Of a DNA stretch of 64,000 nt, positions 5,764-39,326 are shown one piece after another. How positions within the stretch are numbered: position 1 is the first letter of the stretch; each line of letters begins with the position of its first letter. The DNA lies in NCBI GenBank assembly GCA_951406725.2, contig OX597819.1:45260001-45324000 (forward strand), given 5' to 3'. Position numbers and translations under genes: made by a program. The notes below the pieces were generated by a model. The model was not told the origin of the DNA. It searched no databases and saw nothing but the letters and a program-made list of their open reading frames with translations. This DNA comes from Octopus vulgaris (Eukaryota).

Positions 5764-6408
5764 GTATATATATATATGTATGTATACTACTTTATTCAGA
5801 AAGAGACAAGCATTTTTTCGCAATAATATGTGTGTCTGTGCTTGTGCGTGCGTGCGTGTGTGTGTGTGTGTATCTGTGTGTGTGTGTGTGTGTGTGTGTG
5901 TATCTGTGGGTGTGTGTGTGTGTGTAATTGTGGAAAAAATGCCTTTCCCCTTCTGCAGAGAAATTTGCCAATTTCTAAGGTTCGATTAACAAAAACATCA
6001 AAGTTAAGAAAAAATGTATGCGTTACGTCGTTGAAGGGGAAAGCTTCAGGATAACGAAAAGTGATTTTAGTAGAATAAGTAAGAGAGAGGGAACGAATGA
6101 AAAGTAAAACAATTTGAGAAGAGAGAATGATAAAAAAAAACGATAGACATGATAATTTACTGAAGATTATTTAACATTTCGCACATATAAGTCACGGGCG
6201 GTGCTCCAGCATGGCGCACCCTAAGGGGCGAATCGTACAAACGAATGAAAGTATATATATATGTATATATATATATAAGAAAATAGTAGAGTGAAAAAAC
6301 GACAGAAGGCTTAAATGTTAAAAAATATATATATTTGTGTCAAAATGTCTGGAGAATATTGGAAAAATTTTTTCCTTTCCTTAAAATGACATAATTTTAT
6401 AATTTTTA

Positions 6409-6447
6409 AAGAAATACCGGTTTCGCGTGTAGCTTTTCAAATTTCTT
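6409..6447 (-). ncRNA. Mirror copy of the PLE 3' UTR hammerhead-like motif
   Basis: Exact reverse complement of 8045-8083. Confidence 0.6.
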
Positions 6448-6581
6448 GTGACGTTATGTTTATATTGCATGGAGTTATCGTTGTGTTTATTTTCAGGAGA
6501 TTTCTAAATAAGGGGAGGTAGTGAGTGATTTCTTCCGGTGTAAGGGAGATAATCGCTTAAAAATTTTTTTCCTTTCCCTTG

Positions 6582-7007
6582 TTAATTTCTCTGTGTCAGT
6601 ATGTTCGGATGGTTGAGTCTGGGTTTGTACTTTTCAATGAAGAATGTTTCCTTGTTCAGTCTCATTTGTGTTGATGATCCGAAAGCACATTGGTAAAATG
6701 GGAAGATTAAAAATTGTGGCAGTAGTTGCTTTGCGCATTTCTCAATGTGCTCACTAAAAGGTATCATTCTATATTCTGGGAATGCAATCTGTTGTCGATG
6801 CAGTGTGCATCTACGCCTGAGTGATAGTCCCGTGGAACCCACGTAGTCTTGGTGGCAGCCCGAGCATTTAATGACATAAATTATGTTTTCAGAGGCACAA
6901 GTAAAGTTAGATTTGATCTTGAATTTTTGTCCCTCTTTAAAGAGGAATTCTGATCCTTCTAGCAGGTTAGGGCATGTTGCACAGTTCGATCTACCACATT
7001 TTTTTAC
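6582..7007 (-). pseudogene. Inverted copy of the PLE Zn-linker plus GIY-YIG domain
   Basis: KKCGRSNCATCPNL...IYVIKC..YVG...LN; same protein as the plus copy except for 6 extra aa. Confidence 0.9.
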
Positions 7008-7029
7008 AACCTTCTTGCAAGGTTGAAGG

Positions 7030-7911
7030 TACAAAGCCACAGACGCCAAACAATACCTTCTTTTTAATTCATGCCACCCAAGACACACTAAAACAAACAT
7101 CCCCTTCAACCTTGCAAGAAGGATATGCACAATAGTGTCAGAACAAAATACCAGGAACTTTAGACTGCAAGAACTCAAAAACACCCTAATTGACAGACAT
7201 TACCCAGCTCAACTCATAGAGGATGGGATCAGACGTGCAACAGAAATCAACATAGAAACTTTAAGAAAAGTTCAACACAACAACACACCTTCCCCGAAAA
7301 TACTACCTTACATATCTACATACAACCCCAGAAACAAAGAAGCCTTCACCATCATCACCCAGAATTTACCAATACTTCATAAAAACCCAAAATTAAAGGA
7401 AATTCTAAACATACACCAAATCATTAAAAGCTACAAACAGCCTAAATCACTTAAAAAGATTCTCACAAAGGCAAAATTGTCTTCTGAAATTACGGATGCA
7501 AAAGTAAAAAAATGTGGTAGATCGAACCTGCTAGAAGGATCAGAATTCCTCTTTAAAGAGGGACAAAAATTCAAGATCAAATCTAACTTTACTTGTGCCT
7601 CTGAAAACATAATTTATGTCATTAAATGCTCGGGCTGCCACCAAGACTACGTGGGTTCCACGGGACTATCACTCAGGCGTAGATGCACACTGCATCGACA
7701 ACAGATTGCATTCCCAGAATATAGAATGATACCTTTTAGTGAGCACATTGAGAAATGCGCAAAGCAACTACTGCCACAATTTTTAATCTTCCCATTTTAC
7801 CAATGTGCTTTCGGATCATCAACACAAATGAGACTGAACAAGGAAACATTCTTCATTGAAAAGTACAAACCCAGACTCAACCATCCGAACATACTGACAC
7901 AGAGAAATTAA
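7030..7911 (+). pseudogene. PLE ORF C-terminal part: RT thumb, linker and GIY-YIG endonuclease (truncated)
   Basis: YKATDAKQYLLFNSCHPRHTKTNIPFNLARRICTIVS (PLE thumb) ... NIIYVIKCSGCHQDYVGSTG..RRRCTLH...ETFFIEKYKPRLN (GIY-YIG). Confidence 0.9.
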
Positions 7912-8044
7912 CAAGGGAAAGGAAAAAATTTTTAAGCGATTATCTCCCTTACACCGGAAGAAATCACTCACTACCTCCCCTTATTTAGAAATCTCCTGAA
8001 AATAAACACAACGATAACTCCATGCAATATAAACATAACGTCAC

Positions 8045-8083
8045 AAGAAATTTGAAAAGCTACACGCGAAACCGGTATTTCTT
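8045..8083 (+). ncRNA. Minimal type I hammerhead-like motif (U3-A8 variant) in PLE 3' UTR
   Basis: AAGAAA T TTGAAAA GC-TACAC-GC GAAA CCGG TA TTTCTT. Confidence 0.6.
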
Positions 8084-8257
8084 TAAAAATTATAAAATTA
8101 TGTCATTTTAAGGAAAGGAAAAAAATTTTTCCAATATTCTCCAGACATTTTGACACAAATATATATATTTTTTAACATTTAAGCCTTCTGTCGTTTTTTC
8201 ACTCTTTACTATTTTCTTATATATTGACCCACGTGCTTTACCAAACAAACTTTCTTA

Positions 8258-8311
<54 letters not shown>

Positions 8312-16179: not shown

Positions 16180-16515
16180 AGGCGCATGGCTCAGTGGTTA
16201 GAGCAACTGACTCACAATCATGAGAAAGTGAGTTCGATTCTCGTACAGGGCTGTATGTTGTGTTTTGATCTTGAGCAAGACACATTATTTCACGTTGTTC
16301 CGGTTCACTCAGCTGTAGAAATGAGTTGGGCCGTCACTGGTGCCAAGCTATATAGGTCTTTGCCTTTCCCTTGGATAACATCGGTGGCTTGGAGAGAGGA
16401 CTTTAGTAAACATGGGCAACTTCTGGAATTTCATAAACATCTTTGCCCAGACTTGTGCCTTGGAGGGGAAATTTCTAGGTGCAATCCCATGGCCATTCAT
16501 CAAAATACAGGTTGA
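16180..16515 (+). mobile_element. Family-D tRNA/CORE-like SINE
   Basis: GGCGCATGGCTCAGTGGTTAGAGC...GAGTTCGATTC...TCTTGAGCAAGACAC; body shared with 22012-22305. Confidence 0.8.
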
Positions 16516-36248: not shown

Positions 36249-37351
36249 CTAAACTTAAATTACGTATACATAAAGTTATACTAATTTGCTTAGATACAAC
36301 AGATTCACACGCATGTATACACGCAAACACACGCACACATTCACACATATAAACAGAAACATGCATTTACACTCACACAGTACACCCAAGCGTACGCACA
36401 CACACTCACACACACGTACAGACACAAGGCCACATACGCAAACACATGCTGATGCGCATATGCAGGTGCGCGCACGCACGCAATTTTATGTAAATACACA
36501 TCCATGATCGCATGTACTTCCGCTAACGTGCAACGAACAGAAGCGTGCGTGTATACAGACACACACGTCTGCGCGCTCACACACACACACACGCTCACAC
36601 ACTCACACATTTATATACGCAGTTTGTGACAAGGATTAAATGAACATAGTACAATCGTGGACATATGTTTGTTCCACTCGTGTTCCACTTCACATCCTCA
36701 CATTCAACAATCACCAAAACCATCAGCATTATACCCCCCCTTCTGCTGCACCTCCTTCTGTTCCCCCACTTCTCCTCCTCCTCCTCCTTCTCTTATTTCT
36801 CGTCAGAAACATCACCAACACCACCATCATTGTTCATTATTCAATATCATTAACATCAGTGTCAACATCCTCATCGTCGACGTCTTCGTTGTCGTTATCA
36901 TTACCAACAGCACCACTATCATCATCATCATCATCCTCATCATCATCATCATCATCACCATCGTCGTCGTCGTCGTCGTCATGCATTCCAATGTACACAT
37001 ACATATCTTTGTGTGTGTATATACATATACATGTATGCATATATGTATGTATGTACGTGTGTATATGTATACATACACACGCACACATACACACACTCAC
37101 ACACGCGCTCACACACATACACAAATATACACACACACATGCAAATGCATATAAGTATACGTTCATAGCTACATGTATTCGAAGTCGCTGTCAATACTAC
37201 GCTAGTTAAAGAATAATAAATTTGTACCGGACTAAATGTGATGGGTAATCCTCGAATTTGATGTAAAAATGTACATTCAAAATGGCAACTTCACGTGGAC
37301 AGAGTAGGGGATTTTTCTCCTTCCTTCTCCTTTGGTCTCTCCCATGTCTCC

Positions 37352-37388
37352 TGCTTCTGAAGAAGAGCTATGCTCGAAACATAAGGCA
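37352..37388 (+). ncRNA. Minimal type I hammerhead-like motif in a PLE-type fragment
   Basis: TGCTT CTGAAGA A GAGC-TAT-GCTC GAAA CATA AGGCA. Confidence 0.55.
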
Positions 37389-37479
37389 ACCACTCTTTCT
37401 TTCTCCGAACGTATACTTAATACTTTGCATGTGCTACGTCCTCGTGTTGTTAATTTTTCTTGTCCTCTATATAAATATG

Positions 37480-37510
<31 letters not shown>

Positions 37511-37739
37511 ATTTATCAAAAAGGCAGCAAATATATCACAAAAGCTGTTACTCGGAGTTTCAAGTTCCCGTTCTTCGGACTGTTTGAAATATATATATAT
37601 ATATATCAACATCACAATCAAGGAACGGCCATAATAGGCCATTCACCCACTAGAAATAACAGCCAAAGCTTTAACCGCAAAATAACATTAATTCCGTAAA
37701 TCAGGAGAAAATTAAAAAAAAAAAAACATTTACCCTGTA

Positions 37740-37847
37740 ATTTCTTATACGATGCACCGTTTCATCTACTGTTTAATGGTAAACTAACCTGATTAAAATT
37801 AAATCAAGCCAATCTTCCATAGGCCCTTAGATTCCTCAGTAAGAAAT
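37740..37847 (-). ncRNA. Type I hammerhead ribozyme (copy 1)
   Basis: Reverse complement of 38942-39048 (1-nt indel in the stem II loop); predicted cut between 37748 and 37747. Confidence 0.85.
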
Positions 37848-38228
37848 AGCCAGAACGGAACAGATATTTTCACGAGGCATTTCCGTCCCTGCCTCGGCAA
37901 TATCTGACCTAAAATTTTCAAATCATCGCACTCGCGCCAAATTTATCGGCAGCAAATAAATATAAGCCGCCGATTCCATTACGGATCAACCAGAAAATTC
38001 ATAATTAATCAATATAGGGTGGCAAAGAAAATTTTGTAGAATTTTTTGCCACCAGCGGCCTAGTGGGAAAAATTAAATAGTCATAGACCAATTTATAAGT
38101 TCAACATCACAATCAAGGAACGGCCATAATAGGCCATTCACCCACTAGAAATAACAGCCAAAGCTTTAACCGCAAAATAACATTAATTCCGTAAATCAGG
38201 AGAAAATTAAAAAAACATTTACCCTGTA

Positions 38229-38335
38229 ATTTCTTATACGATGCACCGTTTCATCTACTGTTTAATGGTAAACTAACCTGATTAAATTAAATCAAGCCAA
38301 TCTTCCATAGGCCCTTAGATTCCTCAGTAAGAAAT
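38229..38335 (-). ncRNA. Type I hammerhead ribozyme (copy 2)
   Basis: Reverse complement of 38942-39048; predicted cut between 38237 and 38236. Confidence 0.85.
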
Positions 38336-38941
38336 AGCCAGAACGGAACAGATATTTTCACGAGGCATTTCCGTCCCTGCCTCGGCAATATCTGACCTAA
38401 AATTTTCAAATCATCGCACTCGCGCAAATTTATCGGCAGCAAATAAATATAATCCGCCGATTCCATTACGGAATCAACCAGAAAATTCATAATTAATCAA
38501 TATAGGGTGGCAAAGAAAATTTTGTAGAATTTTTTTGCCACCAGCGGCCTAGTGGGAAAAAATTAAATAGTCATAGACCAATTTATAAGTAAATCAGGAG
38601 AAAATTAAAAAAACATTTACCCTGTAATTTCTTATACGATGCACCGTTTCATCTACTGTTTAATGGTAAACTAACCTGATGTTGAACTTATAAATTGGTC
38701 TATGACTATTTAATTTTTTCCCACTAGGCCGCTGGTGGCAAAAAAATTCTACAAAATTTTCTTTGCCACCCTATATTGATTAATTATGAATATTCTGGTT
38801 GATTCCGTAATGGAATCGGCGGCTTATATTTATTTGCTGCCGATAAATTTGGCGCGAGTGCGATGATTTGAAAATTTTAGGTCAGATATTACCGAGGCAG
38901 GGACGGAAATGCCTCGTGAAAATATCTGTTCCGTTCTGGCT

Positions 38942-39048
38942 ATTTCTTACTGAGGAATCTAAGGGCCTATGGAAGATTGGCTTGATTTAATTTAATCAGG
39001 TTAGTTTACCATTAAACAGTAGATGAAACGGTGCATCGTATAAGAAAT
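38942..39048 (+). ncRNA. Type I hammerhead ribozyme (copy 3)
   Basis: Stem I ATTTCTTA/TAAGAAAT (8 bp), CTGAGGA 38950-38956, stem II ATCTA/TAGAT, GAAA 39025-39028, stem III CGGT-GC-ATCG, GUA cleavage triplet ending at 39040. Confidence 0.88.
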
Positions 39049-39279
39049 TACAGGGTAAATGTTTTTTTTTTTAATTTTCTCCTGATTTACGGAATTAATG
39101 TTATTTTGCGGTTAAAGCTTTGGCTGTTATTTCTAGTGGGTGAATGGCCTATTATGGCCGTTCCTTGATTGTGATGTTGAACTTATAAATTGGTCTATGA
39201 CTATTTAATTTTTTCCCACTAGGCCGCTGGTGGCAAAAAAATTCTACAAAATTTTCTTTGCCACCCTATATTGATTAAT

Positions 39280-39326
<47 letters not shown>

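Follow-up and report, generated by a model that had tools for sequence, protein, structure and literature searches.

A 489-nt hammerhead repeat family of Octopus vulgaris with Penelope-like insertion ends, a probable non-LTR retrozyme

Introduction

A stretch of 64,000 nucleotides from Octopus vulgaris (assembly GCA_951406725.2, contig OX597819.1, positions 45,260,001 to 45,324,000 of the forward strand; this whole stretch is called the window) holds a repeat of ~489 bp in direct and inverted copies at 37606-39282. The question raised by this locus is what the repeat is and how its copies came to be inserted. A sequence-only reading of the window had proposed a retrozyme without long terminal repeats (LTRs), i.e., a non-coding tandem unit with a hammerhead ribozyme that is moved by Penelope-like elements (PLEs). 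In this work, the 489-nt unit was confirmed as a young, dispersed O. vulgaris repeat family, and the proposal was supported by fixed internal 3' ends, tail pairing, head-to-head arms, and (TA)n targets. The two-armed architecture with its fixed internal ends had been missed by the earlier reading. We consider it probable that the family is a non-autonomous non-LTR retrozyme mobilised in trans by a Neptune-type PLE protein with reverse transcriptase (RT) and GIY-YIG domains, probably via a circular monomer.

Non-LTR retrozymes are described in coral, mussel, and axolotl, where their circles were detected by Northern blot and PLEs were proposed as their movers (Cervera and de la Pena, 2020, PMC7229834). 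Retrozymes of Xenopus are often homologous to the pseudo-LTRs (pLTRs) of PLEs, and 24 of 57 families match transposable elements, mostly PLEs; judging from its main text, this vertebrate survey samples no mollusc (bioRxiv 10.64898/2026.07.22.740005). The model of a circle moved by a PLE has so far been built on co-occurrence and on pLTR homology, as these two sources present it. Descriptions of the PLEs themselves mention a 5'-truncated copy in inverted orientation and a tail of 30-40 bp that is present at only one of the two ends (Craig 2021, PMC8557442; Arkhipova 2013, PMC3846280). For one PLE protein, which is predicted to dimerise, cleavage and extension of both strands of AT-rich DNA were shown, with starts at two internal positions that delimit the tail (Frangieh 2024, PMC11167929). 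The retrozyme class, the unit length, and the PLE hypothesis are thus already known.

Results

Insertion anatomy of the family

The 2.80-Gb assembly (227 contigs) was searched with a 19-mer of the hammerhead core, which gave 806 exact matches, against none for the reversed control. On contig C1, 68 of these matches lie in 34 clusters, which corresponds to a family of roughly 400 loci; the other genomic copies that the sequence-only reading had expected are thus present. A first set comprised the best 40 of 1411 scored candidates, i.e., the window's own locus and 39 others, and a second set comprised 37 loci in genome order (all 28 new clusters of C1 and the first nine new ones of contig C2), giving 77 loci on many contigs. 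One locus with a double insertion (L123) and one with rearranged fragments (L130) were left out of the pooled end counts, which cover 75 of the 77 loci.

The insertions consist of one or two 5'-truncated tandem arms. Wherever there are two arms, they face each other head to head; none of the 77 loci has a tail-to-tail junction. A (TA)4 tract lies at most 20 nt from 139 of 154 outer flanks. Unit positions are numbered here from the first base 3' of the ribozyme cut, and the outer ends of the arms do not lie at this cut. Instead, 120 of 129 end at two fixed internal sites, ~131 and ~236 nt after it: 64 at positions 125-137 (site A, 42 of them at 131) and 56 at 229-243 (site B, 40 of them at 236). 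Among the 54 two-armed loci there were 47 with A+B, four with A and another end, three with B and another end, and none with A+A or B+B. If sites were chosen independently, 47 A+B loci out of 47 would have P=7e-15. The rule also holds in each set separately (30/40 loci in the first and 18/37 in the second), with no A+A or B+B in either.

Both sites lie 3-4 nt plus AT past a TTGATT, at unit 121 for site A and 225 for site B. A third TTGATT at unit 430, inside the stem II hairpin, serves as no arm end. When a consensus circular fold was computed from 16 monomers, positions 43-55 paired with 247-258 to enclose both sites in one domain, and site A formed the 3' edge of a hairpin loop; at most of the varying pairs, all changes are compatible with pairing. 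The arms have a mean length of 0.8-0.9 kb and a maximum of 3.5 kb, with no correlation between paired arms, and 47/129 contain at least two complete hammerhead spans. At the head-to-head junctions, the two arms overlap by at least 1 nt in 29 of 54 cases. Chance or an assembly fold-back as the origin of the arrangement was ruled out by the 806 core matches against zero in the control, and assembly fold-back also by the unequal end positions of the two arms, which have separate (TA)n flanks.

Common template of paired arms

In the first set, the two arms of a locus share a non-diagnostic variant in 15/31 loci (permuted mean 0.53, maximum 5 in 20,000 permutations), and their subfamily agrees in 30/31. 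Divergence is 0.56% within arms and 0.57% between them (38 loci; 95% interval of the difference -0.11 to 0.14). On these comparisons, both arms are copies of one template made in one event, with the same haplotype and age. The idea that the variants shared by arms are private to their locus was weakened when more loci were added, with only five that are. ADAR editing was also rejected as a source of variants: A>G accounts for one of five fixed private changes and 5/143 singletons, and 40 G>A against 24 C>T fits the base composition.

The arms cross the ribozyme junction 220 times (exact junction 24-mers in 120/132), while only 4/129 arm 5' ends stop at positions 1-10, so a cleaved linear monomer was ruled out as the template. 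The crossings mean that the template was either a ligated circle or an uncleaved multimer. Moreover, the homogeneous multimers of each subfamily need a monomer bottleneck followed by re-amplification. Arms stopping at most 3 nt from whole turns numbered 6/105 against 1.5 expected (P=0.004), the window's left arm included, but this excess is post hoc, has rank 23 of 489 offsets at 5 nt, and could come from pausing on a linear multimer too, so it is given little weight. RNA reads across the GUA|UAAG junction, which the sequence-only reading had suggested looking for, cannot prove a circle, because the genomic tandem holds the same junction.

Penelope-like elements of the same genome

Scoring of 150 of 6136 GIY-YIG candidates revealed two coding PLE families. 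One has a 781-aa open reading frame (ORF) with RT and GIY-YIG matches and a CX4CXXC linker, in 16 copies of 95-100% identity; the other has a 775-aa ORF, all 76 scored copies of which are 100% identical. The CX4CXXC linker is described as a mark of Neptune/Nematis (Craig 2021, PMC8557442), and both families are taken here to be of the Neptune/Nematis type, an assignment by motif and not by tree. The identical ORF copies suggest that intact PLEs are active in the genome. The pairing of one short and one long end was found in 4/4 two-armed loci of the 775-aa family, 3/3 of the 781-aa family, and the single element in the window (6279-8268). These 8/8 loci thus follow the rule across three families, and their tails measure 30-40 nt.

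Compared with 45 GIY-YIG loci, the 489-nt unit matched only 53 bp in L072, which belong to the element itself, and it matched none of 18 loci of the 775-aa family; a DNA search with the tail alone found only the 489-nt family. PLE-like coding pieces lie near 5/77 loci of the family, and none is continuous with the unit.

Several further features of the coding PLEs were noted. Both families, which are very young (L095-L110 and L152-L167), have a second ORF upstream of the ORF for RT and endonuclease (EN); in the 781-aa family it has 479 aa and no Pfam match above the cut-off. The 775-aa family also occurs as full tandem units of 4270 bp (L155, L156). The three coding families have, by eye, variant hammerhead cores, UUGAUAA, UUGAAAA, and CCGAAGA, with UUGAUAA and CCGAAGA in the 775- and 781-aa families. 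The PLE at 6279-8268 of the window is a 5'-truncated coding copy from the RT thumb to GIY-YIG, 49-52% identical to the 781-aa family. Its two head-to-head arms lie in (TA)n and both terminate in TTTCTTAT, with a ~40-nt tail on the right arm. A hammerhead-like motif with the variant core TTGAAAA...GAAACCGGTA is at ~8050-8085.

The element in the window

The ~489-bp unit is 97.6-98.4% alike across its copies at 37606-39282, and its period in Tandem Repeats Finder (TRF) is 488. Two direct copies, one partial copy, and an inverted stretch of ~1.2 copies within (TA)n were confirmed by BLAST and TRF as they had been read from the sequence alone. The left end of the earlier span (37606) stood, and its right end was moved from 39281 to 39282. 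The unit at 37606-38100 recurs at 38101-38590 with 97.6% identity, the partial copy lies at 38589-38680, and the inverted copies lie at 38686-39180 and 39181-39282 (98%).

The left arm (37606..38680, RNA sense on the minus strand) is an A-type, 5'-truncated tandem array whose outer 3' end is unit 136, followed by (TA)n. From this end, it consists of units 1-136, 1-489, and 137-489 and, after a jump, 1-46 and 444-489, all on the minus strand; the part before the jump measures exactly 978 nt, i.e., 2 x 489. A complete 489-nt monomer lies between two hammerhead cuts at 37748..38236 on the minus strand, and this is the RNA predicted to be self-excised and circularisable. The partial copy of the earlier reading is present, and it proved to be the inner piece of the left arm (38589..38680, minus) after the internal jump from unit 137 to 46; of the hammerhead, it retains just the 3' half, with no CUGANGA. 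The right arm (38677..39282, plus strand) is B-type and consists of units 128-489 and 1-236; unit 236 is its outer 3' end, where (TA)n begins, and it bears a ~105-nt tail past site A. Its internal copy of site A, where A-type arms end genome-wide, is at 39168..39177 (plus, unit ~128-136), on the 3' edge of the hairpin loop after TTGATT. Site B, the end point of B-type arms, is at 39266..39282 (plus, unit ~229-243), also after TTGATT. The arms meet head to head at 38677..38680 with a 4-nt overlap (microhomology) between unit positions 444 and 128, and the (TA)n target flanks them at 37588..37605 on the left and 39283..39318 on the right.

No ORF of at least 130 aa was found within 37606-39282, in agreement with the non-coding unit read earlier, and the element has no terminal direct repeats beyond the units themselves, i.e., no LTR. 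The monomer has a GC content of 36.6%. As a circle, it folds with -139 kcal/mol (z -5.6 against 40 shuffles), and the linear form has z -5.06. The motif TTTGGCGCG at unit ~293-302 (38847-38857, plus strand) is invariant in all 16 aligned monomers. It resembles an E2F site and is a possible internal promoter element.

Hammerhead ribozyme

A scan for type I hammerheads on both strands of the window gave exactly three motifs, all within the element: at 37740..37847 (minus, core at 37839, predicted cut 37748|37747), 38229..38335 (minus, core at 38327, predicted cut 38237|38236), and 38942..39048 (plus, core at 38950, predicted cut 39040|39041). The two minus-strand cuts given by the sequence-only reading (38236/7 and 37747/8) were thus reproduced; they are 489 nt apart and would free exactly 489 nt. 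All three motifs consist of stem I ATTTCTTA/TAAGAAAT (8 bp), CTGAGGA, stem II ATCTA/TAGAT, GAAA, CGGTGCATCG, and TA before the cut. The fold with an open core has the 8-bp stem I, a 3x2 internal loop, and five further base pairs; the 5-bp stem II continues through an internal loop into a long hairpin. A stem I with an internal loop is likewise present in the Schistosoma hammerhead. The earlier assignment of one type I hammerhead to each full unit stood, but its stem III closed by a GC loop did not, since a loop of 2 nt cannot close it in the monomer. Stem III would rather have 4 bp with a palindromic UGCA loop, or form a 12-bp duplex in a dimer; dimeric hammerheads with a short palindromic stem III have been described (PMC4209133). 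The covariance-model match suggested earlier was not obtained, as no Rfam hammerhead family matched the element at the gathering score or at E<=10, presumably on account of the 57-nt insert in stem II.

CTGAGGA is changed in 1/129 and GAAA in 1/141 of the BLAST-aligned copies of the first set, although copies this young would show few changes anyway. For this reason, the changes fixed in lineages are more telling with regard to selection. Within CUGANGA, which was not in the pattern used to select the copies for this observation, they fall only at the free position N7, where all four bases (G, C, A, and U) occur. Furthermore, stem II and stem I each show swaps of A-U to G-C, and 96.7% of cells are paired across the 36 hammerhead pairs. 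It is likely that the ribozyme core, except for N7, was kept by selection and that the ribozyme has the predicted activity.

Subfamilies and age

The family contains several subfamilies, 90-99% alike, each forming homogeneous multimers. Locus L122 has seven full or near-full units that carry one variant set, and arms of ~7 units also occur in the window's own subfamily (L043). Divergence between loci of the first set is 0.87%. With a Jukes-Cantor (JC) distance of 0.09 taken as 25 million years (My), a calibration found in PMC13282606, the insertions would be ~0.8 My old or less, a figure that includes RT and assembly errors. In locus L123, two independent two-armed insertions of different subfamilies lie ~500 bp apart, each B+A by eye. 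In L133:3116-4845, every second unit of one arm carries the substitution 423A (no, yes, no, yes), a pattern expected from a dimeric circle or from the duplication of two units. Among 23 listed sequencing runs with four organism labels, 20 contain 36-70% of the element's words, and no RNA run was listed as containing them, a result which says nothing on expression or on spread to other species.

Discussion

We hypothesize that the family moves in the following way. A tandem arm would be transcribed, and Pol III is unlikely to do this, given the many T4+ runs in the sense strand. The type I hammerheads would excise the 489-nt monomer, which would be ligated to a circle, as the structure and the retrozymes of coral, mussel, and axolotl suggest. 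The PLE protein, probably as a dimer, would bind the folded domain of unit ~43-258 with its two RT start sites 105 nt apart and, by analogy with Frangieh 2024, would cut both strands of a (TA)n tract. With 2-3 nt of AT microhomology, each free 3' end would prime one cDNA, one of them at site A (~131) and the other at site B (~236). We observe the fixed ends and the A+B pairing, and from them we infer priming at these sites. Both RTs would then run backwards over the ribozyme junction, completing 0.1-7 turns before they stop at more or less random positions, a step that is seen in the arm lengths and the 220 crossings. Lastly, the two cDNA ends would be joined head to head, often at short microhomology (the 29/54 overlaps). 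Insertion driven by a PLE with two fixed start sites is very probable. If a PLE is the mover, a circular template is fairly probable, rather than a linear multimer. The most specific form of the proposal is put forward as a tentative suggestion: in a single step, two PLE RTs, each primed by one strand of a (TA)n double-strand cut and each obliged to its own start site, would work on one circular RNA, and their rolling-circle cDNAs would be sealed head to head. The RNA would be recognised by its fold and not through homology to the PLE.

Several observations weigh against mobilisation by a PLE through a self-cleaved circle. Self-cleavage, expression, and the circular RNA are predictions from the genome sequence. 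The hammerhead fold (-32.3 kcal/mol) lies 1.4 above the minimum of its region (-33.7), and in Xenopus only one of nine retrozyme dimers is reported to have been cleaved in vitro (bioRxiv 10.64898/2026.07.22.740005). Support from covariation is thin: three pairs changed on both sides, in four cells, and 2/500 shuffles were as high, in related sequences and in a set of 23 of 62 variants that was itself extracted with a pattern requiring the core. The 105-nt tail exceeds the 30-40 nt known for PLEs, and the unit had no similarity to the PLE families sampled (61 PLE-bearing loci of a few families). The PLE of the anole inserts in vitro without need of hammerhead cleavage, with uncleaved RNA as the dominant substrate (PMC11167929). 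Moreover, only five fixed variants are private to a locus, 36/58 loci share an identical consensus with another locus, and in seven loci ten minor alleles are common to some but not all monomers; such patterns are unpredicted by a pure monomer circle without later duplication or dimeric templates.

The last three of these observations (the anole substrate, the alleles found in only some monomers, and the mostly non-private haplotypes) agree with another template, namely an uncleaved linear multimer that is transcribed from genomic arrays, with one or a few long sources per subfamily, and is then inserted by the same PLE machinery at the same two start sites. The hammerhead would then matter little for mobility, and read-through of the junction would fit equally well. 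Yet 5'-truncated copying can only shorten arrays, and with a mean arm of ~0.8 kb it should not have left the ~7 units in the arms of L043. The substitutions of each subfamily are fixed across all units, no array longer than ~7 units was found in the 77 loci or in the first 100 of the 806 matches, and selection has probably kept the hammerhead core save N7. A linear multimer is thus judged unlikely. Growth of the arrays in place is improbable. According to this explanation, a PLE would insert monomers or short partial tandems, which unequal crossing-over or slippage would lengthen while gene conversion homogenised the arms. Neighbouring units do share minor alleles in L032, L040, L045, and L043, and amplification in place is proposed in the satellite-birth model of a 2026 preprint (bioRxiv 10.64898/2026.07.22.740005). 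On the other hand, likeness within an arm is no greater than between opposite arms (0.56% vs 0.57%), arm lengths spread continuously with no bias to whole units, and both sides of one insertion can carry long arms.

It is very improbable that the inverted arm arose by fold-back self-priming or by twin priming of the L1 kind, or that the unit was carried by an ordinary long interspersed element (LINE). Self-priming has been proposed for the PLEs of rotifers (PMC3846280), and 3/54 junctions are exact fold-backs with five within 10 nt, but these five compare with 2.4 expected (P=0.09). Twin priming would explain the 4/50 B arms that stop at 121-141, near site A, and not the 46/50 that do not stop there. 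An ordinary LINE is disfavoured by the lack of a poly(A) end, by the fixed internal position of the ends, and by an A+B rule that agrees with the coding PLEs. It is hardly credible that the hammerhead is a dead relic or that the two-armed arrays are artefacts of long-read assembly. A relic would agree with the missing Rfam match, but all consensus core positions are intact, with variation at N7 and paired changes in the stems; artefacts would not recur at dozens of loci spread over many chromosomes, where the ends are asymmetric and the flanks differ. Our preferred reading thus remains a retrozyme inserted by a PLE, probably from a circle.

The octopus family resembles the metazoan non-LTR retrozymes in its non-coding tandem units with one type I hammerhead each, in a GC content <50%, and in having no LTR, primer-binding site (PBS), or polypurine tract (PPT). 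The strongly folded monomer, hundreds of dispersed loci, and co-existence with PLEs are further points of likeness. Its length, which had seemed unusual to the sequence-only reading, falls within the consensus lengths of 51-972 bp given in the 2026 preprint (bioRxiv 10.64898/2026.07.22.740005). Its two-armed head-to-head insertions with two fixed internal ends differ from metazoan retrozymes as described in the sources consulted. It also differs from the Xenopus retrozymes in matching none of the PLE loci sampled and from the usual 4-bp helix II of retrozymes in the 57-nt insert of stem II. The view that such an extended stem II is uncommon was not upheld, with long inserts also present in four unrelated motifs of this genome (L073, L077, L078, and L097). 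The short palindromic, dimer-capable stem III of a type I hammerhead is shared with satellite 2 of newt and axolotl and with Sm-alpha of Schistosoma as they are described (PMC4209133, PMC7229834), but those are long satellites, presumably of unrelated sequence, whereas the octopus arrays are short and dispersed with intact insertion ends.

With the EN+ PLEs of the Neptune/Nematis type, the family shares 5' truncation, copies both in tandem and inverted head to head, a tail confined to one end, targets that are AT-rich or (TA)n, and a pair of internal RT start sites that lie 3' of the hammerhead cut. Unlike PLEs, it has no ORF, its whole unit is 489 nt, both arms are multimers, and the tail is ~105 instead of 30-40 nt. 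Its canonical CUGANGA core contrasts with the variant cores, read by eye, of the three coding PLE families of this genome. The strict pairing of one of each end (54 loci here) also differs from the optional or often one-ended tail that the PLE papers describe (PMC8557442, PMC3846280).

In the literature searched, there was no description of the 489-nt family, nor of a two-armed architecture with fixed ends in any retrozyme. The main texts of two retrozyme papers (PMC7229834; bioRxiv 10.64898/2026.07.22.740005) name no cephalopod, and the main text of the 2026 O. vulgaris repeat annotation contains neither 'ribozyme' nor 'retrozyme', though its library may hold the unit unlabelled. Within this literature, no hammerhead retrozyme of a cephalopod seems to have been noted before this family. 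The new part is the anatomy of the insertions, i.e., two start sites at fixed internal positions 105 nt from each other, of which each arm uses one, with both arms copied from one haplotype in one event. This anatomy matches that of the coding PLEs in O. vulgaris, to which the unit is not detectably homologous in the sequences compared here.

The insertion scars are still legible because the family is young, and they are Penelope scars, with one of the two fixed start sites per arm in 47/47 classifiable two-armed loci. The family offers a minimal substrate of 489 nt for which start sites are predicted exactly and the target is known, and intact, active PLE proteins are available from its own genome, so that the circular template and the questions of the PLE tail and inverted copy become testable in the in vitro system of Frangieh 2024. 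If the proposal is true, obligatory asymmetric double priming would explain the 'tail at one end plus inverted copy' of PLEs. The insertions would also be evidence, at the level of the genome, that a retrozyme was copied by rolling-circle target-primed reverse transcription.

Additional observations

Unrelated hammerhead-like motifs with long stem II inserts were seen at L078:89-573 and in L073, L077, L097, and L099. L078 has two arms joined head to head, ends in (TA)n, and is possibly another non-autonomous family of the same kind. In the window, a minimal hammerhead-like motif at 37350-37389 (plus strand) has CTGAAGA, a short stem II, GAAA, and a weak stem I; it lies ~80 nt upstream of a TA/TG tract, folds no better than shuffles, and looks like the 3' end of another PLE-type repeat. 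Adjoining the element on its left, at 37511-37585 (minus strand), a repeat-like piece with CCGAAGA...GAAAC and a near-palindromic stem III, which has no significant fold, is possibly a decayed hammerhead remnant. The mitochondrial COX1 of the assembly is 100% identical to a protein labelled Octopus vulgaris. On the mitochondrial contig C227, COX1 appears split over three frames, and dozens of nuclear COX1 copies were seen on many contigs (40 matches). A weak tRNA match of 34.7 bits at 16187-16244 of the window (plus strand) is probably the head of a tRNA-derived short interspersed element (SINE).

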